A DNA stretch of 64,000 nucleotides from an uncultured Gammaproteobacteria bacterium (GCA_964355955.1 CAYHFQ010000002.1:2338-66337), one strand, 5' to 3'. Shown: positions 6,294 to 44,000, counted from the first letter of the stretch. The notes: a model not told the origin generated them from the sequence alone. Made by a program: numbers and translations.

Positions 6294-6322
6294 TTGACCA
6301 ACAAAATTACGCATGATAATAC
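6294..6322 (+). promoter_or_regulatory. sigma70-like promoter for the Rhs toxin gene
   Basis: TTGACC, 17-bp spacer, TAATAC. The -10 overlaps the first ATG of the ORF-track ORF (6313), which argues the real start is the ATG at 6346. Confidence 0.45.
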
Positions 6323-6345
6323 TGAAGCAGTTTAAATACTGTCCT

Positions 6346-9300
6346 ATGCGCATTTTGCCATCACGCTGGCTGTTTGGTCTTATCGGTATCATAGGGCTTG
6401 GCTTATTGGCTTTACCATCAGCCACTTTCGCTACAGTCACAGATCAAGACAGCTCGCCGTTTGTGGTCAAAAATCAAATCAAACTCGCACCGGACATGCG
6501 CACCGGTGCGTTTTCGTATACTTACCCCATCACCTTACCTCCTGGCCGTAATGGTCTTCAGCCCAGCCTCGGTCTATCTTACAGTAGCAGTAATAGCGAT
6601 AACGCCAACCTCGCCGGCTACGGCTGGTTGCTGAATCTCCCAACCATCGAACGCATAGCCACCCACGGCACCGATGACCTCTACACTAGTCACGACTTTA
6701 CCTCATCACTTTCCGGCGACCTCGAAGACATTTCTTTAACCGACGCCACGCACGGCACATACGGCGCCAAGGTCGACGATGGTTCCTTCCTCGCTTACGT
6801 CTACAATTCCGACGAGTCGTGGACAGTCACGGACAAGCAGGGCACCATCTACACTTTTGCCGCAGACACCTCAGCTCAAATCGTTAGCAATACCGACACC
6901 ACGCACGTCTTCCGTTGGTACTTAACCGAGATGCGAGACACCAACGATAACTTCATCGCTTACACTTACTCCAAAGACGCTGGCCAAGTTTATCCCTCAT
7001 CTATCACCTACACCGGTCACGGTAGCACCGCTGGCATTTTTGCTGTTAACTTCACTCTGGAGAGCCGCAGCGACGCGGTCACTTCTTTCGCCACTGGTTT
7101 CTCTGTCAAAACCTCTTATCGCATCAGCGCCATCAACGTCACCGAGAATAGCTCCACTATTCGTAATTACGCCTTAGCCTACATCGCTGGTAGCAACGAC
7201 ATTCGTTCACTACTCTCAACTATCACGGAAACCGCCACCGACGAAGCGACCTCATCAATAATTACCAAACCAGCTACTACTTTTGACTATTCTGCCAACA
7301 CGGATTCATGGACGGAAGACACGAGTTTTGGCGGCTTACCAGAACCTATTGCTGGCACTAGTCTTGGCAGCCTCGGCATTTATTTCTTCGACGTCAACGG
7401 CGACGCTTTGCCAGACATGGTGAAGTCGAAAAGTACTACTCGCACTGTTTATATTAACAACGGCGACAATACGTGGACAGAGGACACCAGTATTACCGTA
7501 CCGTTGCAGTTCGCTAATTCTTTAGGAAAGGATACAGGCGTCCGAGTATTTGATTTGAATGGCGATGGCGAACAGGATTTAATCTCTTCACATATTGATT
7601 CTAGCGGCAATGTAGCTTCTGGAATTTATCTAAACAATGGTGACGGTACTGGCTGGACGGAGGATACGACGCTTGCTGTACCAATTGCTTTTACCAACGA
7701 CGGCAGTGGTTTAGATTTTGGTGTGCGCATTATAGATGCAGATGGAGACGGTATGCAGGACTTAGTCTACAGTCGAGATGGCATGACGACGGCAGTTTAT
7801 ATTAATAATGGTGACGGTACCGGCTGGACCGAGGACACTGGTTATGTGGTACCTATACAGTTTGTGACTTCTGGTTTGTACGACATGGGAGTTCGTCAGC
7901 TCGATGTTAATGGGGATGGGTTGCTTGATTTAGTAAAATCTAGATACACCGGCTCTTCATCGGTTATCGACGAAGCGGTCTACATTAATAACGGAAATGG
8001 TACAGGATGGAGCGAAGATACAAATTACTCCGTACCTGTTGCTGTAATTTTAAGTAATTTCGCGGATAACGGTGTTCGCTATCTAGATGTTAATAGAGAC
8101 GGGTTGACCGACATTGTCTACTTCCGTTCGTATTCCGGAACTGATTATAAAGATGTCTACATTAATAACGGAAATGGTACTGGTTGGACAGAAGATGCGT
8201 CCTATCAAGCTCCATTAGCGTATACGATTAACGGTTTTGATGTCGGTGTTCGTGAAGAAGACATCAACGGTGACGGACTGGATGATACTATTCGTTCTCG
8301 TGATATTAGTACTTTACAAGAAAATCTCTACCTCGCCAGTCCCACGTTCAGCGATAAACTTACCACTGTCACCACCAGCACTGGTGCTTCAACTTCCGTC
8401 ACTTACCAACCCTCAATCACAGTGGGTGGCGACCTCTCGTTCCCACTATCCGTTGTTGCGACTGAAACTGTCGACGACGGCCTAGGCCACACTGCCACCA
8501 CTAGCTACGACTTCGCGGATGGCGATTACTACTACGCCAGTGAGTATGACCGCAAGTTCGCTGGCTTCGGTATGGTCACCATCACTGACGCTAGTGGCAA
8601 AGTCACTAAGCGTTATTATCACCAGGGCAACGCCACCAATAGTACCCAGGGCGAAAGTAGCGACGACGTCAGCAAACTCTGGCAAATGTATCGCGAAGAA
8701 AGCTATGACGACGCCAGCCATCTATTCCGCACTGTCATTCATTCGTTCACCAGTGTCGACCTCGGCTATAGTCGAACCTTCGTTTACGAGAACCAAACGC
8801 TTGAACTCCGCTATGACGCGGACAGTGACCACACGGACTTAGCCACAAGCTACACTTATGATACTTCAACTGGTAATCTAACCGAAAAGAAAGAGTGGGG
8901 GAGAGTCACCGGCGTTGACGCTGGCACGTTTACAGATTCTGCCAGTGACACCCGGATCACAGATTACACTTACGCCAGTTTCTCGACCGGTCTGTGTGGC
9001 CTCGTCGACGATGAGCTGGTCAAAAACAACGCTGGCTCTACCGTTCAGGAAACAAAATATTATTACGATAGCTCAAGCCTCGGTACCGCCACGCTCGGCA
9101 ATCTGACGACCGAAGCGCATTGGACAGCTGGCAGTAGCTTCGTTAATACCGCCTATACTTACGACGGCTACGGTTTACTCGCCACTAAAACCGATGCTTT
9201 GAGTAACACCACCACCTTCACACCTGACTCGGCTAATCTCTACACAGCCACCCAGACGAATGCTTTAAGCCAGGCCACGGCTTACACTTACGATTACTCA

Positions 9301-12048
9301 TCGGGCCAAGTCTTAACGACGACGGACTCTAATGGGGGAGTCTTCGCCACTACTTACGACGCGCTTGATCGCCCTCTAACAACTTCTCAACCAGTTATCG
9401 GCAGCAGCGGCTCGGTCACTAGCAAGACTTTCAATTATGACGACTCGACCTTACCGACCATGGTCCACGAGACCGATGCTTATAATAGCTCGACTAATCG
9501 CGAGACCTACGTGTATTCGGACGGCCTAGGTCGCGTCATTCAGCAGCGTGTGGAAGCCGAGGGTACCAGCACGTTCGACATCACCGATACGCTCTATAAC
9601 GAACTCGGCCAGGTCGCTAGTACCACATTGCCTTACGCCTCAACTGGCTCGGCTTACACTACGCCGACCACAGACACGACGCTTTACCAAACTCTCGCTT
9701 ACGACGCCCTCGGCCGCGTCACTGCCTCAACCAACGTGGAAGGCACGTCGAGCAAGTCCTACGAAGATTGGGTCGTCACCGAAACCGATGCTCTCAGTAA
9801 CACCAAGAATTTTGCTTACGACGCTTACGGCAACTTGAGCGTGGTCGTCGAGCACAAGGGGGCTGTCAGCTATACCACAACTTACGTTTGGGACGCACTC
9901 GGTCGCCTGTACAGTTTGACGGATGCCGATGGCGCTGTGCGTGGTTTTAGCTATGACGGCTTGGGTCGACGTCTAACGGCGCAAGACCTACATGTCGCAA
10001 CAGATACCATGTTTGGCGTTTGGACCTACACTTACGACGCTGTAGGCAACCTAGCGATTTCCTATAGCCCGAACGGTATTACTACCACTTACATCTACGA
10101 CGTCCTCAATCGCGTAACCACCGAAGACGCCTCATCAGCCTCCGGCACAGAAATAACTTACACTTACGATAGTTGCACACTTGGCGTTGGTCGCCTCTGC
10201 CAAACCGTAGTCACCGGGGGAGCCACCACCGCTTACACTTACGATGCCCTCGGCCGCACTGCCACTGAAGCAAAAACTATTAGCAGCAACACCTACGCCA
10301 CCAGTTACACTTACGACTTGCAGGGCAATCAAGCCACTATCACCTATCCCGACGGCGCCATCACCACTTTTACTCTCGGCACCGCTGGTCGCGTCAGCCA
10401 AGTCGACTTCACGGACATCGTCAGTTCCGGCAACGCCACTCCAGCTAGCAGCGTGGTCTACGCCCCAAACGGCAAAATCAGCAGCTTCACTAACGGCAAC
10501 GGTGTCACCACCGCCTTCACCTACAACGCCGCTGACCTCTACCGCTTATCCAACCTAGTCAGTACGAGCGGCAGCAATAACATTCAGAATTTTGCTTACA
10601 CCTACGACGCAGCTGGCGACATCAGCCAAATCGCCGACACTTCCAGTCTCTACGCTGCGGACACTATTGCCTACACTTACGACGATCTCTACCGCTTAAC
10701 CGCCGCCACTGCCACCAGCACAGACTCAACACTCGCTTACAGCAAAACCTGGAGCTATGGTGCCACCGGCAACATCTTGGTTGGTGAAGGCCCCTCCCGC
10801 ACCTACGGCGGCACGGACACTGGCAACTACGCCAACCCGCACGCCGTCACGGCCATGGGTACGCGCACTCTCACCTACGACCACAACGGCAATACCACCA
10901 ACGAAGGCATTTGGACTAACACCTGGAACTGGCGGAACCAAATGACGCAGTCGGCAAGGAGTGGTCCCTCAGTCACAGTCACCTACACCTACGACGCCGA
11001 CGGCAACCGTGTCAGCCAAGTCAACGGCTCTCTCACCCTCGTCTACCCGAACGAATATTACTCCTACACCGGCACTACCCACGACCGCCAGATTCCACTC
11101 CCTGGCTACGGCATGGTCGCGACATCAAAGTACAAGGTCTCAACTTCAACATCGACGATCGCTTACCACCATCACGACCACTTGGGCGGTGAACACGTCG
11201 ACACCGACTCCACCGGAGCTACCCTCGAGTACACCATCTACTCGCCCTACGGCAGTATTCAGAAAACCTCTGGCACCTCGGGCTACCTCAACGTCAACAA
11301 ATTCACCGGCAAGCAAGTAGATAAGGACACCGGGTTCTACTACTACGGGGCAAGGTATTGCTCTGCGAATTATGGGCGTTTCCTCAGCGAGGATAATGTG
11401 TTTTTGGCAGTTGGCGACGACAACAGCCACTTACGAGATCCACAAGCACTGAACTCCTATTCGTACGCCAGGAACAACCCACTACGATTCGTCGATCCAG
11501 ATGGCAATTTCTTTAGTGGCTTTGGCGATATCGCCATTCTCGGTATCGACATAGGCTTCTTATTAAGCGATAATAAAGCAGGTGCTGGAATTGGCACAAT
11601 GGCAGCGGATGTGGGGTTCTTGGCTCTCGATACAATTAGCACCATTATTCCTGGTGTGCCTGCGGGTGCTGGAGTAGCAGCACATGGTATAACAGCCACA
11701 ACTAAAGCAGCTGAAGGAGTAATTAGAGCAGGCGAAGCCGCTCGGGTCACCAAAGCGACATTAAACGCAGAGAGGAAATCGGCAGTAAAGAATGCTTGGA
11801 AGGCAGAACGTGAAGCAGTGACTAAAACAGGTACAGGTACTCGACGCTGGAGCGAATCTCAAACTTCTGAATTATTAGGAAAAGGCAAGGTATCCGGCTA
11901 TGAAGGACATCATATTAACAGTGTGAACGGCAGCCCATTATTAGCTGGAATTGCCAATAATATTAAATTTCTGACACGGGATGAGCATTTAGCTGAGCAT
12001 GGTGGTAGTTGGCTTAATAAAACCGTTGGTAAATTACTTAATCGTTAA
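6346..12048 (+). CDS. secreted SpvB / FG-GAP / RHS-repeat polymorphic toxin (TcB-TcC-fusion-like Rhs protein) with a C-terminal GHH-type HNH/EndoVII nuclease tip
   Basis: N-terminal signal peptide (MRILPSRWLFGLIGIIGLGLLALPSATFA). SpvB-type motif FSYTYPITLPPGRNGLQPSLGLSYSS. Six FG-GAP blades (DxNGDGxxD). Many YD/RHS repeats (YTYDALGR...). RHS core (FYYYGARYCSANYGRFLSEDNV ... NNPLRFVDPDGN). Then a Gly/hydrophobic linker and a tip with GYEGHHINSV...FLTRDEHLAEHG. The ORF-track start at 6313 adds 11 aa before the signal peptide. Confidence 0.85.
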   Translation: MRILPSRWLFGLIGIIGLGLLALPSATFATVTDQDSSPFVVKNQIKLAPDMRTGAFSYTYPITLPPGRNGLQPSLGLSYSSSNSDNANLAGYGWLLNLPTIERIATHGTDDLYTSHDFTSSLSGDLEDISLTDATHGTYGAKVDDGSFLAYVYNSDESWTVTDKQGTIYTFAADTSAQIVSNTDTTHVFRWYLTEMRDTNDNFIAYTYSKDAGQVYPSSITYTGHGSTAGIFAVNFTLESRSDAVTSFATGFSVKTSYRISAINVTENSSTIRNYALAYIAGSNDIRSLLSTITETATDEATSSIITKPATTFDYSANTDSWTEDTSFGGLPEPIAGTSLGSLGIYFFDVNGDALPDMVKSKSTTRTVYINNGDNTWTEDTSITVPLQFANSLGKDTGVRVFDLNGDGEQDLISSHIDSSGNVASGIYLNNGDGTGWTEDTTLAVPIAFTNDGSGLDFGVRIIDADGDGMQDLVYSRDGMTTAVYINNGDGTGWTEDTGYVVPIQFVTSGLYDMGVRQLDVNGDGLLDLVKSRYTGSSSVIDEAVYINNGNGTGWSEDTNYSVPVAVILSNFADNGVRYLDVNRDGLTDIVYFRSYSGTDYKDVYINNGNGTGWTEDASYQAPLAYTINGFDVGVREEDINGDGLDDTIRSRDISTLQENLYLASPTFSDKLTTVTTSTGASTSVTYQPSITVGGDLSFPLSVVATETVDDGLGHTATTSYDFADGDYYYASEYDRKFAGFGMVTITDASGKVTKRYYHQGNATNSTQGESSDDVSKLWQMYREESYDDASHLFRTVIHSFTSVDLGYSRTFVYENQTLELRYDADSDHTDLATSYTYDTSTGNLTEKKEWGRVTGVDAGTFTDSASDTRITDYTYASFSTGLCGLVDDELVKNNAGSTVQETKYYYDSSSLGTATLGNLTTEAHWTAGSSFVNTAYTYDGYGLLATKTDALSNTTTFTPDSANLYTATQTNALSQATAYTYDYSSGQVLTTTDSNGGVFATTYDALDRPLTTSQPVIGSSGSVTSKTFNYDDSTLPTMVHETDAYNSSTNRETYVYSDGLGRVIQQRVEAEGTSTFDITDTLYNELGQVASTTLPYASTGSAYTTPTTDTTLYQTLAYDALGRVTASTNVEGTSSKSYEDWVVTETDALSNTKNFAYDAYGNLSVVVEHKGAVSYTTTYVWDALGRLYSLTDADGAVRGFSYDGLGRRLTAQDLHVATDTMFGVWTYTYDAVGNLAISYSPNGITTTYIYDVLNRVTTEDASSASGTEITYTYDSCTLGVGRLCQTVVTGGATTAYTYDALGRTATEAKTISSNTYATSYTYDLQGNQATITYPDGAITTFTLGTAGRVSQVDFTDIVSSGNATPASSVVYAPNGKISSFTNGNGVTTAFTYNAADLYRLSNLVSTSGSNNIQNFAYTYDAAGDISQIADTSSLYAADTIAYTYDDLYRLTAATATSTDSTLAYSKTWSYGATGNILVGEGPSRTYGGTDTGNYANPHAVTAMGTRTLTYDHNGNTTNEGIWTNTWNWRNQMTQSARSGPSVTVTYTYDADGNRVSQVNGSLTLVYPNEYYSYTGTTHDRQIPLPGYGMVATSKYKVSTSTSTIAYHHHDHLGGEHVDTDSTGATLEYTIYSPYGSIQKTSGTSGYLNVNKFTGKQVDKDTGFYYYGARYCSANYGRFLSEDNVFLAVGDDNSHLRDPQALNSYSYARNNPLRFVDPDGNFFSGFGDIAILGIDIGFLLSDNKAGAGIGTMAADVGFLALDTISTIIPGVPAGAGVAAHGITATTKAAEGVIRAGEAARVTKATLNAERKSAVKNAWKAEREAVTKTGTGTRRWSESQTSELLGKGKVSGYEGHHINSVNGSPLLAGIANNIKFLTRDEHLAEHGGSWLNKTVGKLLNR
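7300..8340 (+). repeat. six tandem intragenic FG-GAP (beta-propeller blade) repeats with near-identical nucleotide segments (YINNGDGTGWTEDT)
   Basis: Recurring 'tattaataa(t/c)gg(t/a)ga(c/t)gg...ggctggac(g/c)gag(g/a)aca' DNA. Protein repeats follow the pattern WTEDT...VPxxF...GVRxxDxNGDGxxDLV. Confidence 0.75.
10826..11505 (+). repeat. homology block (RHS core end, NYANPHAV...RFVDPDG) shared with the downstream orphan rhs-CT module
   Basis: About 680 bp aligns colinearly with 12712-13390 at roughly 85-90% nucleotide identity by eye. Protein similarity breaks exactly after DPDGN. Confidence 0.8.
11511..12045 (+). other. C-terminal toxin domain of the Rhs protein: Gly-rich hydrophobic pre-toxin linker plus a GHH-signature HNH/EndoVII-fold nuclease (Tox-GHH-like)
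   Basis: Sequence diverges from the orphan copy right after DPDGN. The GHH motif sits in YEGHHINSVNG, followed by N, H and E (NNIKFLTRDEHLAEHG), consistent with HNH superfamily toxins. The local GC drop is typical of swapped toxin tips. Confidence 0.5.
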
Positions 12049-12052
12049 TAGT

Positions 12053-12652
12053 ATGAATATTCAAGATACGATAATGCCAATTCTAAGAAAAGCTGAAACT
12101 TTAGGTACAGAAAAATTAGATGACGGAACTTTGTTAATTGGCAGAGTTCCGCATATCGCTCCTCTAGCCCGACTCCATATTGTACCGGGTGGTCTTAGAG
12201 AGGAGGGTATTGCTTTGTTGGAGGATCATATTAATAGGAAAATACCTAATAATTATAGAGATTTTTTGCGACAGACAAATGGACTTCACGTATATTCTGA
12301 TGCAATTAGCCTTGATGGATTACGGACTAATTATGCGCGTGACATCGCTGGAGCCTGGCAGCCATTTAGTCTTATTGAGCCTAATACTTATGAACGTCCA
12401 AGAGATGCTAAGGACTCTTATTTATTTATAGGTGGATATGGCTACGACGGATCCTCTCTATTCGTTGATTCCGATTCTGGTAAAGTTTATCGGTGTGCTC
12501 AAAAATATGCATCCGAAATTTTTAACGTCTGGCCTGACTTCTGGACAATGCTAACTTCTGAAGTTGAAAGATTAGATGGGTTGTTCGATGCTGAAGGAAA
12601 GAAGAAATATCCAGATCGGCCAACTACTCCAGAGCCAAATATAAATATATAG
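12053..12652 (+). CDS. SUKH-1 (SMI1/KNR4 family) immunity protein cognate to the Rhs nuclease tip
   Basis: Starts 4 nt after the Rhs stop. SUKH hallmark (IPNNYRDFLRQTNGLHVY, LFVDSDSGKVYRC). It is AT-rich like the toxin tip. The longer ORF-track start (11999) overlaps the Rhs gene and is unlikely. Confidence 0.7.
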   Translation: MNIQDTIMPILRKAETLGTEKLDDGTLLIGRVPHIAPLARLHIVPGGLREEGIALLEDHINRKIPNNYRDFLRQTNGLHVYSDAISLDGLRTNYARDIAGAWQPFSLIEPNTYERPRDAKDSYLFIGGYGYDGSSLFVDSDSGKVYRCAQKYASEIFNVWPDFWTMLTSEVERLDGLFDAEGKKKYPDRPTTPEPNINI

Positions 12653-12711
12653 ATTGTTAATTTTATAAGTTTTTTTATAATTTAATACGGCATTAAATCA
12701 GCTCCTCCCGC

Positions 12712-13390
12712 AACTACGCCAACCCGCACGCCGTCACCACCATGGGTACCCGCACCTTCACCTACGATAATAACGGCAATACCACCAACGAAGGCGTCTG
12801 GACCAACACCTGGAACTGGCGTAACCAAATGACACAATCCACCCGTACCGGCCCCTCCGTCACTGTCACTTACGCCTACGACGCGGACGGCAATCGTGTC
12901 AGCCAAATCAACGGCAGCCTCACCCTCATCTACCCGAACGAATACTACTCCTACACCGGCACCACCCACGATCGTCAGATCCCATTACCTGGTTACGGCA
13001 TGGTCGCGACTTCAAAATACAAAGTTAGCACTTCAACCTCCACCATCGCCTATCACCACCATGATCACTTGGGCGGCGAACACGTCGACACCGACTCCTC
13101 CGGCGCCACCCTCGAGTACACCATCTACTCACCGTACGGCAGTATTCAGAAGACGAGTGGAACAACCGGCTATGTTAACTCGAACAAATTCACTGGCAAG
13201 CAAGTAGACAAGGATACTGGGTTCTATTACTACGGAGCACGTTACTATTCTGCGAATTTTGGTAGGTTCCTAAGCCAAGATAACGTCTTCCTCGCCATCG
13301 GTGTAGATAACGGCATATTAAAAGACTCGCAGGCACTAAATTCCTACTCATACGCCAGGAACAACCCACTACGATTCGTCGATCCAGACG
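12712..13390 (+). repeat. second copy of the RHS-core homology block (partner of 10826-11505)
   Basis: See the partner repeat. It begins 15 nt after an in-frame stop at 12694-12696. Confidence 0.8.
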
Positions 13391-13980
13391 GTAACTCATT
13401 CTGGGATTTCGTAAATCGTGCTGGTAATAGTTTCGGTCGAATTGCTGACTCGATGATCAGAGCCAATAACAGAGTAATTGCTCCAGCAACCAACAGCGCT
13501 TATAATTTCATCACCCTTGGAGCAGGCGACGCCGCTTCTAACATGGGGCGTAACGGGGTAACTGTCGGTGGGTTAGCTCATGTGGGTTATGGGGTTGTGT
13601 ATGGAACTGTCACTACGGCTCTCGCTGCGCTAGATATCGGTGCTGCAGCTGGAGGAGCGGCTGTGAATTTTGGAGTTATGAGCGGTAGAGGCGGTGGTCA
13701 GAATTTGGGAAACGCTTCGGGTAAGTCTGTTAACGGCAGAACAACAATACCTTCTCATTGGACGGTTGAAGAATCTAAGCGTGGGGGAGGGTATATTTAT
13801 ACAAATCCAAACGACACAAGAGAAAATATTAGGCTAATGCCGGGAAACAAAAGCAGTCCCCACACGGTGAGTCAGGCTCCATATATGAGACATCAAGTAA
13901 ACGGAGGCTATCTAGATTCATCTAAAAGAATTAATTCAGATAACGCAGCTACGCACTTTCCAATTAAAACAATCAAATAA
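12742..13980 (+). CDS. orphan rhs-CT module: partial RHS core (no N-terminal shell) fused to a different C-terminal toxin domain of unknown family
   Basis: The first ~215 aa are 85-90% identical to Rhs residues ~1510-1730, including the HHHDHLGGEHVD, FYYYGARY and RFVDPDGN motifs. The in-frame homology (NYANPHAVT) extends upstream of the ATG to 12712 after a stop at 12694. The ~195-aa C-terminus is unique (Gly-rich linker, then HWTVEESKRGGGYIYTNPNDTRENIRLMPGN). Confidence 0.8.
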   Translation: MGTRTFTYDNNGNTTNEGVWTNTWNWRNQMTQSTRTGPSVTVTYAYDADGNRVSQINGSLTLIYPNEYYSYTGTTHDRQIPLPGYGMVATSKYKVSTSTSTIAYHHHDHLGGEHVDTDSSGATLEYTIYSPYGSIQKTSGTTGYVNSNKFTGKQVDKDTGFYYYGARYYSANFGRFLSQDNVFLAIGVDNGILKDSQALNSYSYARNNPLRFVDPDGNSFWDFVNRAGNSFGRIADSMIRANNRVIAPATNSAYNFITLGAGDAASNMGRNGVTVGGLAHVGYGVVYGTVTTALAALDIGAAAGGAAVNFGVMSGRGGGQNLGNASGKSVNGRTTIPSHWTVEESKRGGGYIYTNPNDTRENIRLMPGNKSSPHTVSQAPYMRHQVNGGYLDSSKRINSDNAATHFPIKTIK

Positions 13981-13982
13981 TT

Positions 13983-14348
13983 ATGAACTATATCAGAAAG
14001 CACATTTTCAATTTACTTAATCAGTACCAAGATCTCGCAATGCAACATAAAGAGTGGACCGAAAATTTAACCACTTCATATATAACACCAACGGAATTTA
14101 TCGCCGAATGGTTTGATGATATATTCAACCATGGAGCCGATGAGCTAATTAAGGCGGGTGAGATAAGTATTGAAGAGTGGGAAATTATAGAACCGTTCCA
14201 TGCGTCATTTCGTGCATTCGCAGATGAATACTATAAAAACGAAAATTCAATTCCAGCAGACATGACGACTTATGAGCCTTGGGTAGTAATTGCCAAGACA
14301 GCAGCAGAGACAGTCGAGAAGTTGGAAGATCTGGGTTGGAAGCTATGA
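13983..14348 (+). CDS. candidate immunity protein for the orphan toxin (acidic 121-aa protein)
   Basis: Starts 3 nt after the orphan toxin stop. AT-rich and small, in the position typical of cognate immunity genes. No family recognised. Confidence 0.5.
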   Translation: MNYIRKHIFNLLNQYQDLAMQHKEWTENLTTSYITPTEFIAEWFDDIFNHGADELIKAGEISIEEWEIIEPFHASFRAFADEYYKNENSIPADMTTYEPWVVIAKTAAETVEKLEDLGWKL

Positions 14349-14398: not shown

Positions 14399-14686
14399 GT
14401 GGAATCAGCTGAGAATCTAAAAATCGGTATTTCACAAAACGTACGAGAAAGATTGTTATCAATTAATGGTCTTCGTCATAAACAGGAGGGAGATACGACT
14501 GGGTGGTATATCTGGACTGGTGAAGAGTGGACGGAAGATTCCGCATTCCTTGTTCCTGTTCACGTTAAACATATAAATGAATGGAACCCTTTAATCGGCA
14601 AATATCTTGGGCTTCCTCCTGGGACAAGATTCCTTATTACTTCGGAATATGAGGACGTATGGCAAGATCCGTCACTACTAAACTAA
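14399..14686 (+). CDS. hypothetical small protein (possible orphan immunity gene)
   Basis: AT-rich ORF in the immunity array. No motif recognised. Confidence 0.35.
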   Translation: MESAENLKIGISQNVRERLLSINGLRHKQEGDTTGWYIWTGEEWTEDSAFLVPVHVKHINEWNPLIGKYLGLPPGTRFLITSEYEDVWQDPSLLN

Positions 14687-14693
14687 CTTAACT

Positions 14694-15122
14694 ATGAAAA
14701 TTATAAACAAATTAAAACAATGGTGGATGAATCATCAGATAAATATTATGAAGTACACTTGTCCATGTTGTGGGTATATGACTTTCGATGAGGCTCTTGG
14801 TTCAGATGAAATTTGTGATATTTGTTCATGGCACGATGACCTGGTCTCTTATAACCATCCTGACAGGGCTATCGGACCTAACAAAGTCACATTGATACAG
14901 GCACAGGTAAACTATCTTGAATTCGGCATAAGCAATCCTAGCCTAAAAAAATCAAGAGTAAATATCACTAACTACCCAAAGGATAGTTTATGGCGTTTAA
15001 TTGATTTGACTATCGACAAAAATCTTATGAATGGTGGCGGTGAGAGATTTTGGGACCTCTTAATTAAAGAAGTTGGCGAACCCCTACCTAAGTATTACTG
15101 GCTTAGTAATAATGGGAGTTAA
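14694..15122 (+). CDS. Cys-rich CPCC-domain protein (family seen in polymorphic-toxin immunity loci)
   Basis: The YTCPCCGYMTFDE...CDICSWHDD motif matches the CPCC Cys-rich domain. Location is within the immunity array. Confidence 0.55.
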   Translation: MKIINKLKQWWMNHQINIMKYTCPCCGYMTFDEALGSDEICDICSWHDDLVSYNHPDRAIGPNKVTLIQAQVNYLEFGISNPSLKKSRVNITNYPKDSLWRLIDLTIDKNLMNGGGERFWDLLIKEVGEPLPKYYWLSNNGS

Positions 15123-15131
15123 AAAAGTAAT

Positions 15132-15737
15132 ATGGTTAAAAAATCTGTCGAGTCCAGTCTAACCGCTGACAACGAATGCGCAATCTGCCAAACGGGGAGT
15201 ACTGTTGAAAAGTTCGTTGCTCCAGGCATGAAAAGCCAATTAAGTACTAAGCTTTGTTTAGAGTGCAAAGAAAAAGTCAATCAACATTTTTTAGCCGAAA
15301 CACAGGACTCAAATATCGTCAGAGCTATAACCTGGGGAGTTCTTGCGGCTGCAGTTGGTAGTGCTGTTTGGTACTTTGTAGCCATCTGGACGGGTTTAGA
15401 AATAGGCTATCTCGCTATTGGCTTAGGACTTTGGATCGGTTTAGCGGTTCATTTCGGATCGGGTAAAAAGAAGGGCCGTCGATTACAAATAATCAGTTTA
15501 ATTCTGACTTTCTTAGCTATTATAATTGCGAAGAAACTAATCTTTGATTATTATCTCAACGATTATCTTCAGGGTCATTTGGCAGATTTTCAGGATTTTG
15601 TAGTCGGTCAAAAGGTGAGTGTATCATTTTTTGCGGTTGAATTTTGGCAAAGTGTCGCGTCCATCAAGGGTCTACTAATTAGTCTGCTCGGACTTGTTGT
15701 GGCCTTTGTCATTTGCGCACCAAGAAAACTTAAATAA
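15132..15737 (+). CDS. membrane protein with an N-terminal zinc-ribbon-like CxxC...CxxC and 4-5 TM helices
   Basis: ECAICQTG...CLECKEKV, then hydrophobic helices. Last gene of the AT-rich array. Confidence 0.45.
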   Translation: MVKKSVESSLTADNECAICQTGSTVEKFVAPGMKSQLSTKLCLECKEKVNQHFLAETQDSNIVRAITWGVLAAAVGSAVWYFVAIWTGLEIGYLAIGLGLWIGLAVHFGSGKKKGRRLQIISLILTFLAIIIAKKLIFDYYLNDYLQGHLADFQDFVVGQKVSVSFFAVEFWQSVASIKGLLISLLGLVVAFVICAPRKLK

Positions 15738-15772: not shown

Positions 15773-15791
15773 AGAACTATCAAACAAATCC

Positions 15792-15822
15792 GTTCCGCTT
15801 TTAGCGGAGCGGCTTTCGTTCT
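15792..15822 (+). terminator. possible terminator of the immunity array (gttccgct-ttt-agcggagc, then a T-rich run)
   Basis: 8-bp stem with a 3-nt loop followed by ggctttcgttct. Confidence 0.3.
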
Positions 15823-37321: not shown

Positions 37322-40300
37322 CTATTTCACTCCAGCCGGAGTTACGCCAGACAAGAACCCAAAGTTATTGTTAGTACCGTCTCGATCCTGTACCTGGCCT
37401 AAGACAGACCTCATTCCTGCGGCATCATAAACAACAGCATGATCGTAATAGCCGGTATCAAGGTTAACCAGACCCTTCACATTCATGGACTTAGCGATTA
37501 CGGCCTCTTCATAAAGCGTCATCGGCTGTGAGAAGTCAATAATACCGAATGTGCCGTCTTTGAAAGTAGCTATTGCTCGACGCTTATCCCTAACATTACT
37601 CGAGTTTCCAGCCACTGCCAATTCCCCATCGTCGACCAATAGATGCCCAGACATCATATCGATTTTATTCTTTTTAGCTAAACTGAGTAGCGTTGAAAAA
37701 TCCTCCAAATTCTTACGGAAAGCCAATGGTTCTGCGGTCTCATTGCTATCCAAGTCATGTTTAGTTAGCTTATCACGGTTCACAATTATCATGTGTCCTT
37801 CAGCATCTACAATTACCGCGCCATCACGATTAGAAATTAGATAGTTCACCACACTTCCGTTGTCGATAGCTAATTCTGCCGGCTTCATAGCGCCTGTCGT
37901 GTAAGCACCGACGCTTTCCGCTACCAAGGCACCATCCGGGTAATTATCGCGCATAACCTGCTCAGTCAACCCACCGCCAACTTTGACTGTATAATCAACA
38001 GTCGCTCCCTTGCTTGGGTCGCCAATTACAACCGTAGCCAATTCTTTGCCATCAGTGCGCCAAGTTACCATTCTGAAACCAGCTTTGAGTTTCTTGGAAC
38101 TACGTCTTACCTCCGGCGTTATCGACGCCCATTCATCACGCATGACCCCTGCAGATAGTAATCGATCAAAACCTTTATTTAATACATATCCAAAATTACC
38201 ATCTTTTAAACTGCGGGTAGTCTTGCTAAGACTTCCCTCGGTAATTGGAATATTTGCCCCAGCATCTTGCAACTGAGCAATAATATCGGCCGCCCGCCTA
38301 TCACCAGTATCCGTCTCCAGGCCTTCGGTATTAAAAAATTCTAAGATTTTCTGCACCTGGAAAGACCCTAACATTGTGTACATACCAAGTACATCACTAG
38401 GTATGCCTCTACCATCAGCCTTTAAATAATTTTTGGCAAAAGTGGTTTTCTGGTTAATATTGTCCCAAGTCACCGGTTCACCGTCAATTGCCCTTGTCCC
38501 AACATCAATCAATATTTTGTCTCCCGCCGCCGCGTCAATAGCCGCATTTATTTTTTTACGAATATCTTCAACTTTAGAAATATCATTAACATCTATCCCT
38601 TGCGCTACTCCATGCCAATCAACTTGCTTCATGAATTCTGCCTCCAGAGTATTTGCAGCGTCTTTATTGATATCACGAATCAACGAGATCTTAGCCAGAC
38701 CCTGCGTAAACTCGGTAAAGTTGGCTGCTTTAGGCACGCTCACCTTAACAGTTGAATTAAATTGGCCCCTTCCCTCCTGCTGTCCAATGCCAAAGTTGAT
38801 AAATAATAGCTTGGCGTGTTCCGACTCTAGATTCTCGTCTGTAATGACATCAGCAAAACCGTAGACTTCGGTTGAATGTAAGGTATTGGCATAAGCCTGA
38901 GCCAAGCGAAAACCATTAATATTGGTCATTAACTTCAAGACGGCAGCTACGTCCGCCTCAGTCGAAGCGTTCATTTCTGTAGGAAATCCCTTAAAGTTTA
39001 GCTTACTAAAATAAAGTTCACCAGCATTTGTACCAAACTCCTGAGTTATATAGTTAGCCTGGGCCACTACCTCGTCCATGGTCTCCGGTGAGAGAGTAAA
39101 CTGCACGTTAGAATAATCAGCTCTTTCTGCTAATTTACTCATAAAACTCCGGTATTGGAAATACCCATACAATGGCTTGGTTTCCGCATCATACCGCGCC
39201 GAAAAAACCGGGAAACCGGAAAAATCTAGATGCTTAAGAATTTCACTCCTCGTCCTATCTGACTTAAACTGTCGCAATAACTCATCGATGTTTCTTAAAT
39301 CTTCTAATGACTTCGGCTGTTGCCAATTTCCCTCTAAGTGAACGTCCTCGTAGCCAGTAATTTTCAATCTATGCAAATTGCTCTCGAGAGAGGCAGTCTC
39401 TATAATTAAATTAATGTTATCTGCTTCCTTAAGATTATCTATCGTCCAATTAGTCGGATAACCAACTATCTTAACATTGATTCCGTCATCATACCTATTA
39501 ACTAAACTGGCCAGCAAAACCGTCGCAACGGGACTACTATTGATTTCCGCTAATGAAATTTGACCCTCAGATCTATGTTGCTTATCAACAGCGATAGCAA
39601 TATCACCTTTCACTAAACTAGGGTCATTCACTAAATACGCCATCCGTGCAGAATCATAGCCGGAAGATTGTTCAAGATCTTTGATCTTTTTAATTAGCTG
39701 AAAAAAATTATCATCAGTTACTACGCCGCCATAGAATTGCTCCCGAGCTTGCTTTAATAAAATAGCCTCAAGACCAACCTTCGGCTGAAAGTCTTCACTA
39801 TTTTTAATAGCCTTCAGAAAGTTCTCGTATTCTGGTAATCCTAAAGCGTCAAATTTAGGAAACGACGATGGATCAGCATTCTCAATATAGCGCGGGATTA
39901 AGGTTGCATAATAATCCTTAGAACCAACATCTTTTATTAAGGATTCTAACTGATTACCAATTTCTATAAACTGCTGCGGATTTTTAAAATCTAAGCCAGG
40001 AAATCCTTCAAAAGAGGCCGAGTTTAGCAAATGGGTGCCAATTTCAAAACTAAATTTACGGTCATCATAATGATCCCCTTGGAAATCATAATTCTGCGCT
40101 TTCGTAAGACCAAACTCCCAATACCCAATGTCATTAAGCTGCTTGGCAGCCGCCACAATATCTTTAGTGTATTTTTGATTAATTACGGTTGGGAACTCAT
40201 GCGGATCAAAAGTTAATGAATCAATATATTCATCGACTAAAAAAGAACTGTATCTAGCCCCATAATCATCTCTATCAGATTCTTGAACTGCTTTAAATAA

Positions 40301-41044
40301 AAAAGCTCTTAAGCGTGGTAAGTCTTTCTTGTGCAATTCATGAGGTAAATCCTTGAATTCAAAATGTTCAACTAAATTCGCCATCCCCCTACCCAACAAA
40401 TGCTGCATTTTTAAAAAATCAGTCTGACCGTCAATTTCAACGCTAGGTACACGCTGATTAGAATATTCCCTAGCCTGTCTGTACAGCAGCCCTTGAGCAC
40501 ATGTAGCTACATCGTTATACTCGACAATTTCTTCATGTTTTGGGTCTTTGATAACAATGTTATCAATAAACTTCCCCCAGGCTTCGCGTTCATCTAAATA
40601 TTGACGCAAGTCTTGCTCGTCTTTTAGTTCAACCGGTAGTCCATCTAATTTAAAGTGTTCTTCAAAAACGTAAGATAGTTCATTATTATCAAGCTTTGGA
40701 TAATAAGCATGAAGTTTTTTAATCAACTCAGGAATTCTCTCCCTCGTCACTGGTGTCGCCATCTCGCCGGCAAATTCTTTAACAAATTTAGCCTCTGCCT
40801 CGGCCCGCTCGTCAGTTACTTTGCTCGCTACTAATTCCAACTTTTTAAACGGTACATTCCTCTCCGCGAACTCTTCCGCTGTAGTTGCGTGCGGAGGAAC
40901 TGGATGTTCAATCTGGTTCCCTTCAGCCAAAGTCGTCAAACCGAGCAGAACGCCTTGCATCAGGCGACTCTTCCAGGTAAACCTAACTGGCTCTTTTCTC
41001 ACCTCAGGTGAATATCCACCTCTCTCACCATGGCCAAAACTCAT
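37322..41044 (-). CDS. giant hypothetical protein (1240 aa), paralog 1. Internal 'xxGFPxxxxxxxEAD' repeat modules. C-terminal ~330 aa resembles a phosphodiester-glycosidase (NAGPA-like) domain with a degenerate LDGGGS site
   Basis: No recognisable catalytic family in the N-terminal 800 aa. The C-terminus RRAIATFKDGTFGIIDFSQPMTLYEEAVIAKSMNVKGLVNLDTGYYD parallels the NAGPA-family pattern (R.A.G..dG.l.l..vdg...g.tl.ela.....ga.nAlNLDGGGS). An N-terminal hydrophobic segment (LMQGVLLGLTTLAEG) may be a signal anchor. Confidence 0.55.
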   Translation of the reverse strand: MSFGHGERGGYSPEVRKEPVRFTWKSRLMQGVLLGLTTLAEGNQIEHPVPPHATTAEEFAERNVPFKKLELVASKVTDERAEAEAKFVKEFAGEMATPVTRERIPELIKKLHAYYPKLDNNELSYVFEEHFKLDGLPVELKDEQDLRQYLDEREAWGKFIDNIVIKDPKHEEIVEYNDVATCAQGLLYRQAREYSNQRVPSVEIDGQTDFLKMQHLLGRGMANLVEHFEFKDLPHELHKKDLPRLRAFLFKAVQESDRDDYGARYSSFLVDEYIDSLTFDPHEFPTVINQKYTKDIVAAAKQLNDIGYWEFGLTKAQNYDFQGDHYDDRKFSFEIGTHLLNSASFEGFPGLDFKNPQQFIEIGNQLESLIKDVGSKDYYATLIPRYIENADPSSFPKFDALGLPEYENFLKAIKNSEDFQPKVGLEAILLKQAREQFYGGVVTDDNFFQLIKKIKDLEQSSGYDSARMAYLVNDPSLVKGDIAIAVDKQHRSEGQISLAEINSSPVATVLLASLVNRYDDGINVKIVGYPTNWTIDNLKEADNINLIIETASLESNLHRLKITGYEDVHLEGNWQQPKSLEDLRNIDELLRQFKSDRTRSEILKHLDFSGFPVFSARYDAETKPLYGYFQYRSFMSKLAERADYSNVQFTLSPETMDEVVAQANYITQEFGTNAGELYFSKLNFKGFPTEMNASTEADVAAVLKLMTNINGFRLAQAYANTLHSTEVYGFADVITDENLESEHAKLLFINFGIGQQEGRGQFNSTVKVSVPKAANFTEFTQGLAKISLIRDINKDAANTLEAEFMKQVDWHGVAQGIDVNDISKVEDIRKKINAAIDAAAGDKILIDVGTRAIDGEPVTWDNINQKTTFAKNYLKADGRGIPSDVLGMYTMLGSFQVQKILEFFNTEGLETDTGDRRAADIIAQLQDAGANIPITEGSLSKTTRSLKDGNFGYVLNKGFDRLLSAGVMRDEWASITPEVRRSSKKLKAGFRMVTWRTDGKELATVVIGDPSKGATVDYTVKVGGGLTEQVMRDNYPDGALVAESVGAYTTGAMKPAELAIDNGSVVNYLISNRDGAVIVDAEGHMIIVNRDKLTKHDLDSNETAEPLAFRKNLEDFSTLLSLAKKNKIDMMSGHLLVDDGELAVAGNSSNVRDKRRAIATFKDGTFGIIDFSQPMTLYEEAVIAKSMNVKGLVNLDTGYYDHAVVYDAAGMRSVLGQVQDRDGTNNNFGFLSGVTPAGVK

Positions 41045-41073
41045 ATGCGTTTATTATAACACGAATATTTTAT

Positions 41074-44000
41074 CTATTCCTGTGCGGTCTGATAGACCAT
41101 CGGCATACCTGTCAAAAAAGCAAACTTGTTATTCGTTCCATCCTGATCCTGTTGACCTAAGGCAAATAACATACCAGAAGCATCGTACACATTTGCATGA
41201 TCGTAATAACCAGTATCGAGGTTGACGAGACCTTTTACGTTCATCGACTTAGCAATAACCGCTTCCTCATACAGGGTCATTGGCTGCGAGAAATCTATCA
41301 AGCCAAAAGTGCCGTCCTTAAACGTCGCAATCGCCCGCCGCTTATCTCTGACGTTACTCGAGTTACTGGCTATAGCGAGTTCACCATTATCCACCAATAA
41401 ATGACCAGACATGACATCAATCTCGTTCTTGCGAGCTAACGTAAGTAGAGTCGAAAAATCCTCTAGCTTGTCGCGAAAAGCTAAATGATCAGCAGCCTCT
41501 TTACTATCCAGGTCATGCCTAGTTAGTTTATCGCGGTTAACGATATTCAAGGCCCCGTTGACATCAACAATCGCTAACCCATCGCGATCGGAAATTAAAT
41601 AGTTAACCACATAACCGTGGTTAATAGTTAACTCAGCTGGCTTCATCGCACCAGTCGTGTAAGCGCCCACGCTTTCGGCTACCAAGGCGCCTTCTGGGTA
41701 TTTGTCATGCATAACCTGTTCGGTTAACCCACCACCAACCTTCACGGTATAATCTACCGTCGCTCCTTTAGCTGGATCGCCTATCACCGCCTTCGCCAAC
41801 TCCTCACCATTATTTTTCCAATTAACAAAAGTATACCCAGCCTTAAGTCGCTCGGTTCGAGTTTCAAAAATAGGCGTAATACCCTGCCATTCTGGCCGCA
41901 TAACGTCGGCTGCTGCCAACTTGTTTTCAATTTTGCTCCAAATATAAGCTGGGTCACCCATGCTCCGCCAAGCCTTTTGCCAACTGCCCTCAGTCACAGG
42001 GATATTAGCTCCTGCCGCTTGCAAACGCTCAATAGTTTCCGCTACTCGGGCGTCACCTGTATCTGCGGCCAAGCCTTCAGCGTCAAAGAACTCTAAAATC
42101 TTCCGCACTTCAAAAGATCCCAACATCTTATAGACGCCTACTACATCTGGGTCTATACCGTATTGTTCAGCCTGTAAATAATGCTCAGCAAAAGTAATTT
42201 TTTTCTCCATTGTCAGCCAACTGACAGGTACGTTAGCGATATCTCTAATACCGACCTCCACAACCAGTCCGTCCCCTGCTGCAGCATCGATTGCCAAGTT
42301 AATATTCTGGCGTACCGACTCCACGGCCTCGATATTATCGATATCAACACCCTTGGCAACTCCTACCCAGTCTACTTGAGATAAAAATTTTTGCTTCAGC
42401 TCTTCCGCTACCTTATTATCCAAATCTTGCACTAACCCAATTTTCGCCAGGCCAGCAGTAAACTCGGCAAACGTTGTGGCTAGTGGAATAGAAACTTCAA
42501 ATTTTGGCTTTATTCCAGAATATCGAGTCTCTGGCGTAGAACCTATGCCGTAATACACTAATAATCTCTTAGTATTTTCATGCTCTAAATTCTCATCAGT
42601 AATAATTGGGGCGAAAGTATAAAGATGATCAGAATGTAGAGTTTTAGCATAACTACTGGCCAAATCTTCCTGAAAACTATTAATAAATAGTTTTAGAGTA
42701 GCGGCCACATCAGCTTCGGTTTTTTCATTAACTTCTTGTGGAAAGGCAGCAAAAGTTAGTTTGTTCAAATAGCCCCTAGCCTCACCAGTTCCAACAACAT
42801 CTACTAAATAGTCAAACTGCCGTTTTATTTCTGGTAGATTATCGGGAGTTACCGCAAAAATACAGTCAGAGAAGTCGGCTCGTTCCACTAAGCCCGGGCC
42901 GAACCAGCGACTGACCAGAGAGCCACGTTTTAATATGTTGGCCTTGTAACTTGCCGAAAAGACTGGAAATTTTGAATAATCAAGATGTCTAACAATTATT
43001 CGTCCAGTTCTTTCGTGCTCTTTTAAAATTGCCGCCAGATTCTCTAGATCATGCCAAGTTCTGGGCTGACTCAGTTCACCCTCAAACTTCACGTCACGAT
43101 AATTACTGGACCCGATGTCAATTTGGCTACCTAATAAATCAACAGCCTCGATTGCTTTCTCGATTTCCGTAATGTTTTCTAAAGTCCAAACCATCGGGAA
43201 GCCATTTAAGGAGATTTTATCCGGAATTCTGTAATTAAAAAATTGGTGAAAAAAGGCTTTACCTGTTGGGCTCTTTTCTACTTCTTGTAGTGCTAGTTCA
43301 CCAGGCAGCTTATGTTCAGCAGCAAGCGATAAGGTTAAGTCACCTCGCCAATGAGCAACTGGAGCCATCAAGGAAACGAGAAGTTCCGGTTCAACATCTG
43401 ACTCGGCATCAAGTCTAGCTAACTCAGCCAAGACAGTCTCTAAATTTTCAGGCGTTATATCCCCCAATTGCGCTTGGCGTCGAATAATCCTTATTAATTC
43501 GTTTCTTGTATTATCTCGATCCCAGGCAAAATCAATATTATTATCAAATTCAATAAAGAAAGTTTGATACGTTTCCAAGCCTGCAGTATTAAGTTCAGGG
43601 AAATTTCTTGTTTCAGCTAAATCTACAAAATGTGACGCCAGACTTGACCGATAAATCGTTGAACCAGCAGACTTACCGAGATCAGTCAAAATTCTAACAG
43701 TGTCCGCAAATTGCTCAGGGTGGTGAAAATCTAATGGATTAAAACCCTCAAATGTTGAACTCCTAAGTAGTTGATGGCCTAATCCAAAACTGACAGGAGC
43801 ATCTTTATTCACCCAATCACCATCTTGAATATCTAATGATTTGCTAATCCCATTCTTATAAAAGCTTATTTGGTTCAACTGTTTAGCGGCCGCTAAACTA
43901 TCTGCTGAATCATCCTTGTGGATGACTGTCGGAAATTCAGCTGAATCGAAGGTTAATGTGGCAATATATCTATCTAACAAAGCAGTCGTACAAGCATCGT

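Follow-up and report, generated by a model that had tools for sequence, protein, structure and literature searches.

A probable orphan toxin-tip cassette behind a full-length Rhs gene in a genome related to Candidatus Uhrbacteria

Why should a full-length Rhs toxin gene be followed, on the same strand, by a fragment that repeats its 3' part and ends in a different tip? Our study addresses this question for a 64,000-nucleotide (nt) stretch of DNA, referred to here as the window, which was deposited under the name of an uncultured Gammaproteobacteria bacterium (GCA_964355955.1 CAYHFQ010000002.1:2338-66337). An earlier note, made from the sequence alone, had described the fragment as an orphan rhs-CT cassette and as a toxin-tip switching substrate caught in place. 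We conclude, with a probability of roughly 0.82, that positions 12697-14348 form an orphan rhs-CT/immunity cassette behind a full-length SpvB/FG-GAP/RHS gene, and that this cassette is usable by recombination. The features that enter into this reading are the following (aa, amino acids; ORF, open reading frame).

6313-12048, + strand: full-length main Rhs polymorphic toxin gene, 1911 aa (ORF listing, Pfam, TIGR03696)
10823-11507, + strand: repeat copy 1, the ~228 codons that directly precede the tip of the main gene (NYANPHAVT...RFVDPDGN)
11509-12048, + strand: main tip, a Gly/Ala/hydrophobic linker (about 11509-11690) followed by a Tox-GHH nuclease domain of the HNH/EndoVII type
12053-12652, + strand: SUKH (SMI1/KNR4) immunity gene for the GHH tip (PF09346, E = 7e-10)
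12653-12709, + strand: AT-rich spacer and junction, with a sigma-70-like site, a TAA stop and a 5-codon lead-in
12697-13980, + strand: orphan rhs-CT open frame, 427 codons; 412 aa from the start ATG at 12742 (ORF listing; TIGR03696, E = 6e-21)
12710-13394, + strand: repeat copy 2, the orphan core fragment, 82% (nt) and 90% (aa) identical to copy 1
13396-13704, + strand: orphan pre-toxin linker, linker-1 (SFWDFVNRAGNSFGRIADS...GAGDAAS...AAAGGAAVNFG)
13705-13980, + strand: orphan toxin domain toxY, ~90 aa, a putative toxin and, by profile comparison, a distant member of the PT7 superfamily
13983-14348, + strand: putative cognate immunity gene for toxY, 121 aa, beginning 3 nt past the orphan stop

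The two copies of the repeat, found from a seed at 10823/12710, align in MAFFT without a gap over ~685 nt, and similarity is lost sharply on both flanks. At an offset of 1887 they agree at 82.1% of 680 nt, where neighboring offsets give 20-34%, and the encoded proteins are 90% identical over 228 codons; since 1887 is 3 x 629, a crossover between the copies would be in frame. Differences on codon positions 1/2/3 number 26/10/87, the ratio of nonsynonymous to synonymous substitution (dN/dS) is 0.074 with dS at ~1.0, and the longest identical runs measure 38, 26, 24 and 23 nt. The repeat that the earlier note placed at 10826-11505 and 12712-13390 is thus real and ungapped, but the high identity claimed for it amounts to 82% at the nucleotide level, and with a dS of ~1 the copies are old relative to each other. 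A tblastn search of the window revealed no core remnant beyond these two.

The orphan frame opens at 12697, past a TAA stop (12694-12696), with the five-codon lead-in ISSSR, which is unrelated to the parent, as had been described, and precedes NYANPHAVT. Its opening corresponds to parent residue 1505, and both genes lie on the + strand with the orphan downstream; the ATG at 12742 is the sole start codon in the frame. The fragment was formerly thought to carry no shell; the Rhs-associated core (Rhs_assc_core, TIGR03696) occupies residues 144-232 of the 427-aa frame, and ~140 aa of YD-repeat shell are retained ahead of it. This core is the only family match of the orphan in Pfam and NCBIfam. Past DPDGN the two copies diverge completely, as first reported: a BLASTP comparison of tip against tip gives E = 57, Tox-GHH is found on the main copy and no Pfam family on the orphan. 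The guanine-plus-cytosine (GC) fraction is ~0.52-0.59 in the backbone and core, as against 0.37-0.43 in the tips, immunity genes and small genes.

The parent gene contains RHS/YD repeats, a Rhs-associated core with DPxG and a variable C-terminal toxin. Its product runs from an N-terminal hydrophobic, signal-like segment through SpvB, FG-GAP repeats, RHS/YD repeats, Rhs-associated core and linker to Tox-GHH, with Pfam matches to SpvB, FG-GAP_3, RHS_repeat (PF05593, E = 2.5e-26) and Tox-GHH (E = 2.9e-19, residues 1817-1887) and a TIGR03696 match at residues 1643-1731 (E = 5.9e-17). Read from the sequence, the N-terminal segment is probably a signal peptide for Sec export. The ORF of the SUKH gene, ending at 12652, is listed as 217/199 aa. 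Within the main gene, four diverged direct repeats of ~45 nt at 7625-8198, spaced 171-183 nt apart, encode YINNG(D/N)GTGWTEDT of the FG-GAP blades; they are ordinary repeat-domain structure.

From this anatomy we propose that the orphan combines the last ~228 codons of the main gene (three YD repeats and the Rhs-associated core to DPDGN) with a modular linker, a ~90-aa PT7-superfamily domain and an immunity gene. Because it is without the N-terminal 1504 residues needed for export and encapsulation, its tip would be deliverable only after being joined to the main gene. Wherever in the 685-nt repeat it fell, an in-frame crossover would create a 1926-aa Rhs protein with the toxY tip, and the same crossover would delete the 1887 nt that carry the GHH tip and SUKH. 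The repeat would also exchange sequence with the main copy by gene conversion, which would leave the orphan core intact and seemingly strongly constrained. For this model we infer the toxicity of the tips, the specificity of immunity, the route of export and a useful rate of recombination across the present 82% repeat.

The source of the window and its relatives provide the comparisons on which the recombination step can be judged. The 412-aa orphan product is recorded exactly on five contigs, and three of these, from three assemblies, were compared with the window; they are 99.99-100% identical to it with the arrangement unchanged, and one is a 1.09-Mb contig (1,085,513 bp). The host is a ~1.09-Mb genome related to Candidatus Uhrbacteria (Patescibacteria/Parcubacteria group). 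Its closest annotated relative is Candidatus Uhrbacteria bacterium GCA_003518105.1, in which the housekeeping flanks of the locus are 77-81% identical to those of the window, and the chromosomal slot of the Rhs locus, between pbp2 and greA, is conserved. The syntenic Uhrbacteria locus is labelled L087-L089 below, L088 being the member used for most core comparisons, while L081 is a groundwater contig, L086 a JGI contig, and P-numbers denote proteins.

The closest GTDB representative, the metagenome-assembled genome (MAG) DeMMO3_42 (L001), is syntenic with the window at ~73-74% nt identity, and its contig terminates within the Rhs core repeat, at locus position 10416. A break inside the core is what assembly would give if DeMMO3_42 also holds orphan copies, and Rhs loci with orphan copies are probably under-represented in MAGs.

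In L087-L089 the gene order is pbp2, Rhs-main (1909-1911 aa, with linker-1 and a tip called toxX), a 124-aa gene, a GHH orphan, SUKH, a toxZ orphan, small genes and greA; the first orphan is a 62-aa core remnant with Tox-GHH and the second a 220-aa core with toxZ, a third toxin (P0152). GHH and SUKH adjoin each other here and in L081, as they do in the window. This pair is the expressed module in the window and an orphan in L087-L089, and linker-1 stands on the orphan in the window and on the main gene in L087-L089, so that, on comparison of these genomes, tips at the locus have switched between silent and expressed positions on an evolutionary time scale. The junction at the orphan slot, from SUKH through the spacer to the core, is common to the window and the Uhrbacteria genome, bar a 16-nt indel. 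When four copies of the core (two genomes and two slots, 672 nt) are compared, 35 of the informative sites unite the copies of one genome, 9 unite those of one slot and 14 link them crosswise, which indicates that the main and orphan cores have exchanged sequence since the two genomes diverged. Within L088, the identity of main and orphan falls along the repeat from 0.98 through 0.91, 0.80 and 0.78 to 0.63, and includes an identical stretch of 177 nt.

The groundwater contig L081 captures such an exchange more closely. Its SUKH 3' end, spacer and orphan core are 100% identical to those of L088 over the first 260 nt, and it keeps to the 19 orphan-specific sites until position ~490, after which it follows the main copy at all 183 later diagnostic sites; past the switch, the 3' part of the main core, toxX, the 124-aa gene, GHH and SUKH follow at 99%. 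Read in order, the joint comprises SUKH, spacer, orphan-core 5' part, main-core 3' part, toxX, immunity gene, GHH and SUKH, with one period of 3037 nt. The single switch in this orphan-5'/main-3' hybrid lies within a 9-nt shared motif and not in the 177-nt identical stretch, and is thus not a k-mer path switch between the L088 copies. L081 may represent a crossover joint of the duplication or circle type, or mark where a conversion tract stops, the assembly graph of its strain being incomplete; under either reading it records a recent exchange between the two repeats. Its orphan core ('orphan1') had been considered as a true positional orthologue and was rejected as such, being a hybrid of the L088 orphan and main copies. 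An origin by simple deletion, with the 3' core of the window's main gene nearer to the GHH-orphan remnant of L088, was also rejected: identity is 68% to that remnant against 75% to the L088 main copy, both values being saturated. The proposal that recombination would swap the tips accordingly finds its support in relatives, through the positions of modules, the concerted cores and the L081 hybrid, and no recombinant was seen at the window's own locus in the three contigs compared. The anatomy of the locus, its homologies, the module boundaries, and the exchange and position switching in relatives are matters of direct observation.

Three products in these relatives, toxX (...IANGHAYDKHA...; L088 7613-8196), toxZ (L088 10661-11125) and the 124-aa gene (L088 8198-8572), have no Pfam match, and the Rhs tips of these bacteria seem to harbor a stock of toxin and immunity families not yet classified. 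As to where cassettes begin, 24 of 120 Rhs-fragment proteins (among the P0187-P0261 set) start within ~35 residues of the start of the window's orphan, at parent residues 1479-1515, and bear many different tips; most are from one other lineage, which makes their independence doubtful. We do not claim a universal cassette boundary near 1479-1515, given the dominance of this lineage and the homology of its lead-ins to main-gene sequence, and the region just before YANPHAVT may be a preferred boundary.

What, then, does the orphan carry? A word-indexed search returned only two relatives. P0001 has the core and linker in common with the orphan and a different toxin; P0002 shares the last ~90 residues, with core and linker different. 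These two patterns of sharing show the tip to be modular, linker plus toxin. Linker-1 also precedes a different toxin in P0001/L081 and sits on the main gene of L088, and its recurrence with another toxin marks it as a separable module. Both linkers of the window are Gly/Ala-rich and moderately hydrophobic, with a peak 19-residue Kyte-Doolittle hydropathy of 1.5-1.7 (1.5 for linker-1), which led to the earlier suggestion of a shared entry or translocation linker; the likeness is one of composition, as BLASTP of the main against the orphan linker finds no homology (E = 57). The linkers may plausibly have a membrane-active or entry role.

The toxY domain proved to be widespread. A metagenome scan with the 194-aa tip found no relative and one with an alignment of the tip found a single contig, L086, while an exhaustive HMMER search with the last 101 residues reached 406 cluster representatives at E <= 0.001, and in every HMMER match listed the domain is C-terminal. 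One match, P0003, is a protein of 1906 aa that is 42% identical to the parent over a BLASTP alignment starting at residue 21; a full-length protein with a toxY-family tip means that shells of this type also carry the family in the expressed position. With residues numbered along the 101-aa segment 13675-13977, P26, G39, R53, Y70 and H94 are invariant in an alignment of 64 sequences, and the window's toxY keeps all five. The Rhs-associated core is present in 19 of 64 short toxY homologues. Neither Pfam nor NCBIfam has a toxin model that any of the 64 matches, the window tip has no match in either even at E <= 10, and a phmmer search of the tip against the PDB yielded chance matches only. The initial statement that this tip has no nameable family holds for Pfam and NCBIfam models, but profile comparison places it as a distant member of the PT7 superfamily.

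PT7 is a polymorphic toxin reported to have a novel fold and Mg-dependent, non-specific endo-DNase activity, and PDB entry 8OWU is the PT7(Bc) D37A-PIM7 complex from Bacillus cereus (bioRxiv 10.1101/2021.10.19.465003). A local profile-profile comparison of 150 toxY domains with 33 PT7 relatives gave a probability of 96.3% and E = 1.8e-9 over 74 columns, so that homology of toxY to PT7, as a distant superfamily member, is well supported at the level of sequence profiles. The homologous sequence profile and the same fold, by which the PT7 family is defined, are both ascribed to toxY. An AlphaFold prediction from the single sequence had a predicted local distance difference test (pLDDT) score of 43 and was redone with the 64-sequence alignment; a Foldseek search of the PDB with the toxY model returned nothing significant and did not recover PT7. 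R35, D59 and H73 of PT7 align with R53, D81 and H94 of toxY. The two residues that PT7 needs for toxicity, as judged by mutation, are not conserved: D37 aligns with Met55 (or Pro56), and H47 corresponds to the invariant Tyr70 in the profile-profile alignment and to a non-conserved position in the profile-versus-PDB alignment. The systems also differ in their surroundings: toxY is carried here by Rhs proteins and PT7 occurs either linked to LXG or on its own, and the 121-aa immunity protein resembles no PDB chain at E <= 0.5, PIM7 included. With D37 and H47 unmatched and an immunity partner unlike PIM7, the Mg-dependent DNase activity of PT7 is not simply transferable to toxY. Many toxins of the PT7 family (P0272-P0289) are 78-aa stand-alone proteins labelled 'transposase' in NCBI, UniRef and a PDB chain, a label that appears to be a propagated misannotation.

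The putative immunity gene accompanies toxY in other settings. In L082 and L086 a gene 54% identical to it (E = 4e-49) stands directly 3' of a 63%-identical toxY homologue, and core and linker contexts differ there; this pairing, conserved across contexts, is sequence evidence that the 121-aa gene encodes the cognate immunity protein. The protein itself has no family match and no PDB sequence match at E <= 0.5. That each tip is followed by its own putative immunity gene, as proposed at the outset, is borne out by the SUKH match (PF09346) behind the one and by these homologous pairs behind the other. On L086, positions 103-329 and 1670-1896 are copies of a 227-nt RHS segment that are 100% identical and then diverge, and the next cassette, which opens with the second copy, begins 9 nt past the immunity gene stop on this contig; the 227-nt identity looks like a very recent tandem cassette or conversion.

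Several observations weigh against a cassette that is deployed by recombination. The three contigs contain no recombinant allele of the window's own locus; with 82% identity and exact matches no longer than 38 nt, the repeat is far less suited to recombination than its Salmonella counterpart; and simple deletion would remove SUKH, which is predicted to expose recombinants to the GHH toxin of their siblings. A low dN/dS, 0.05-0.10 in every core comparison, also fits a translated stand-alone product. The 38-nt identical block at 11464/13351 was considered as a recent conversion patch and rejected (permutation P = 0.10). With a repeat this old and poorly matched and an arrangement identical in all three contigs, 'caught in place' is too strong, and the orphan is better described as a long-resident cassette in an evolutionarily active slot.

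Of the alternatives, the one that survives best is compatible with the cassette model, although we consider it a doubtful addition: the orphan would be expressed in situ, with a promoter of its own and translation from ATG 12742, and would act inside the cell in the manner of a toxin/antitoxin pair, stabilizing the island or modulating growth, effects reported for the main and orphan rhs-CT of Salmonella. The intact frame does have a Met at 12742, but this residue belongs to the core consensus and is present in main genes too. A sigma-70-like site (TTGTTA-16-TATAAT, a 10/12 match) lies at 12654-12681, yet the region has no excess of promoter-like sites over what shuffles predict (17 against 14.0 +/- 2.9), and the hexamers are not conserved in L081/L088, where the spacer is homologous. 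Shine-Dalgarno (SD) sequences are nearly lacking from this genome, so that the missing SD at ATG 12742 is uninformative and no argument against such expression, and Salmonella rhs-CT regions have internal promoters and toxic internal ORFs (PMC7043789). A dN/dS of 0.065 between the orphan copies in the same slot of two genomes, calculated with the real orphan of L088, speaks for a translated product, but concerted evolution with the main copy already accounts for low values; we therefore rejected low dN/dS as proof of stand-alone function, since none is required to explain it. Nor has a product with 228 residues of shell and core an obvious intracellular role.

On translation starts more generally, only ~8 of 39 sampled gene starts in the window have even a 4-nt SD-like match, and an extended -10 (TGnTATAAT) ends 6-9 nt before the ATG of several genes, for example at 29982 (+), 37298 (-), 41044 (-) and 44691 (-), two ORFs of >1200 aa at 37322-44691 being among them. 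This pattern suggests that leaderless or near-leaderless mRNAs are widespread in the genome.

Less credible, and in our judgment improbable, is that the orphan is a dead relic of a displaced former tip, with a functionless core fragment and toxin, kept only because its immunity gene protects against neighbors. The age of the main/orphan repeat (dS ~1.0), the lack of recombinants of the window locus among the contigs compared and the adjoining immunity-type genes without toxins would all suit a relic, but a 427-codon frame free of frameshifts and stops with dN/dS of 0.05-0.10, the retention of every invariant toxin residue in toxY, and an intact orphan with recent exchange in the same slot of a sister lineage would not. 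Next to no probability attaches to an artefact of assembly, in which a strain variant of the Rhs 3' end was collapsed or duplicated to give the repeat, even though related assemblies break at the repeat and the L001 contig ends in the Rhs core, because the copies differ at 18% of positions and bear unrelated tips, three contigs from three assemblies (one of 1.09 Mb) agree at 99.99-100% across the locus, and L087-L089 have the same architecture.

Beyond the recombinable orphan cassette, which remains our preferred reading, we tentatively raise two further ideas that the data make possible rather than likely. In these ultra-small bacteria, Rhs tip cassettes may rotate between the slot that is expressed and the one that is silent, by way of excised circles or of tandem duplications made by recombination, and L081 has precisely the joint that this would leave; were this so, the ~228-codon orphan core would persist as a conserved landing pad. 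The second idea is that the orphan tip might stand for a large toxin family of at least 406 clusters, so far unclassified, in which the PT7 fold is kept and the active site has been rebuilt around Arg/Tyr/His, with a different activity.

Behind the toxY immunity gene three further small genes lead up to greA.

14399-14686, + strand: Imm33-like gene with no adjoining toxin (PF24719, E = 1.6e-33)
14694-15122, + strand: gene for a Cys-rich CPCC protein with no adjoining toxin (PF14206, E = 1e-24)
15132-15737, + strand: gene for a 201-aa protein with a Cys motif and a hydrophobic part, the last gene of the low-GC island

The Imm33-like and CPCC genes, the latter of a family that recurs in polymorphic-toxin loci, were probably left behind in the island, or picked up by it, as immunity genes. 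The 201-aa gene is absent from the syntenic L088 locus, where other small genes stand: at the same place the Uhrbacteria locus has an 82-aa gene with a weak Imm40 match, a DUF695 gene and an 87-aa gene. The island of the window has a GC fraction of 0.37-0.42, and the slot 14399-15737 suggests by its behavior a variable immunity island. The only strong terminator-like hairpin on the + strand is at 15790-15812, past the island and before greA, and Rfam over all 64 kb returned no family at gathering score, including tRNA, riboswitch and leader families.

How does this locus compare with known systems? The WapA-type, Sec-dependent YD/Rhs toxins of monoderms and the TcB/TcC-like SpvB-RHS proteins combine a signal peptide, an RHS cocoon, a core, a C-terminal toxin and a downstream immunity gene. 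The main gene shares this layout, as judged from its Pfam and TIGR03696 domains, and differs in that its RHS repeats are preceded, in the same protein, by SpvB and a five-blade FG-GAP region.

The orphan itself resembles the rhs-CT/rhsI orphans of Enterobacteria (Poole et al., 2011, PMC3150448; Koskiniemi et al., 2014, PMC3967940), which are likewise 5'-truncated, co-oriented rhs fragments behind a full-length rhs gene, with core homology to DPxG, a divergent tip and an immunity gene of their own, and deployable by recombination across the repeat. The Salmonella pair, rhs-main and orphan, has 522 bp in common at 95% identity, and recombination between the two brings the orphan toxin into use, a duplication or circle being the suggested first step (Koskiniemi et al., 2014, PMC3967940); the repeat of the window is 685 nt at 82%. 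There is also a likeness to the toxin/antitoxin-like modules internal to Rhs-CT regions (PMC7043789), in that transcription of the orphan pair could begin inside the fragment or a short way upstream, although no conserved promoter or start signal is demonstrable in the window. A search of PMC open-access papers and bioRxiv found no paper on Rhs toxin/immunity in the Candidate Phyla Radiation (CPR) with Rhs or CPR in title or abstract, a narrow search that does not establish absence.

Orphan Rhs tips are textbook knowledge in enterobacteria, and our finding therefore adds no new principle: the element is of a known type, an orphan rhs-CT/immunity cassette, here in an unusual host. The widespread, unmodelled toxin domain of the orphan gains a name and a hypothesis, a PT7-like fold with an altered catalytic set, and two more tips (toxX and toxZ) and several small immunity-type genes without a family are flagged. 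Three related genomes with the same modules in different positions offer a compact natural system for the study of tip exchange. Unlike the enterobacterial orphans, this one belongs to a genome outside the proteobacteria, of ~1 Mb and related to Candidatus Uhrbacteria (Patescibacteria). PAAR/VgrG-linked delivery by the type VI secretion system is replaced in the main protein by a signal-like N-terminus together with SpvB and FG-GAP, and diverged genomes have preserved the slot of the orphan along with its junction, but with different tips. On our reading, the logic of the silent cassette known from enterobacteria would work in a ~1-Mb genome of the Patescibacteria group as well, at a conserved slot between pbp2 and greA.

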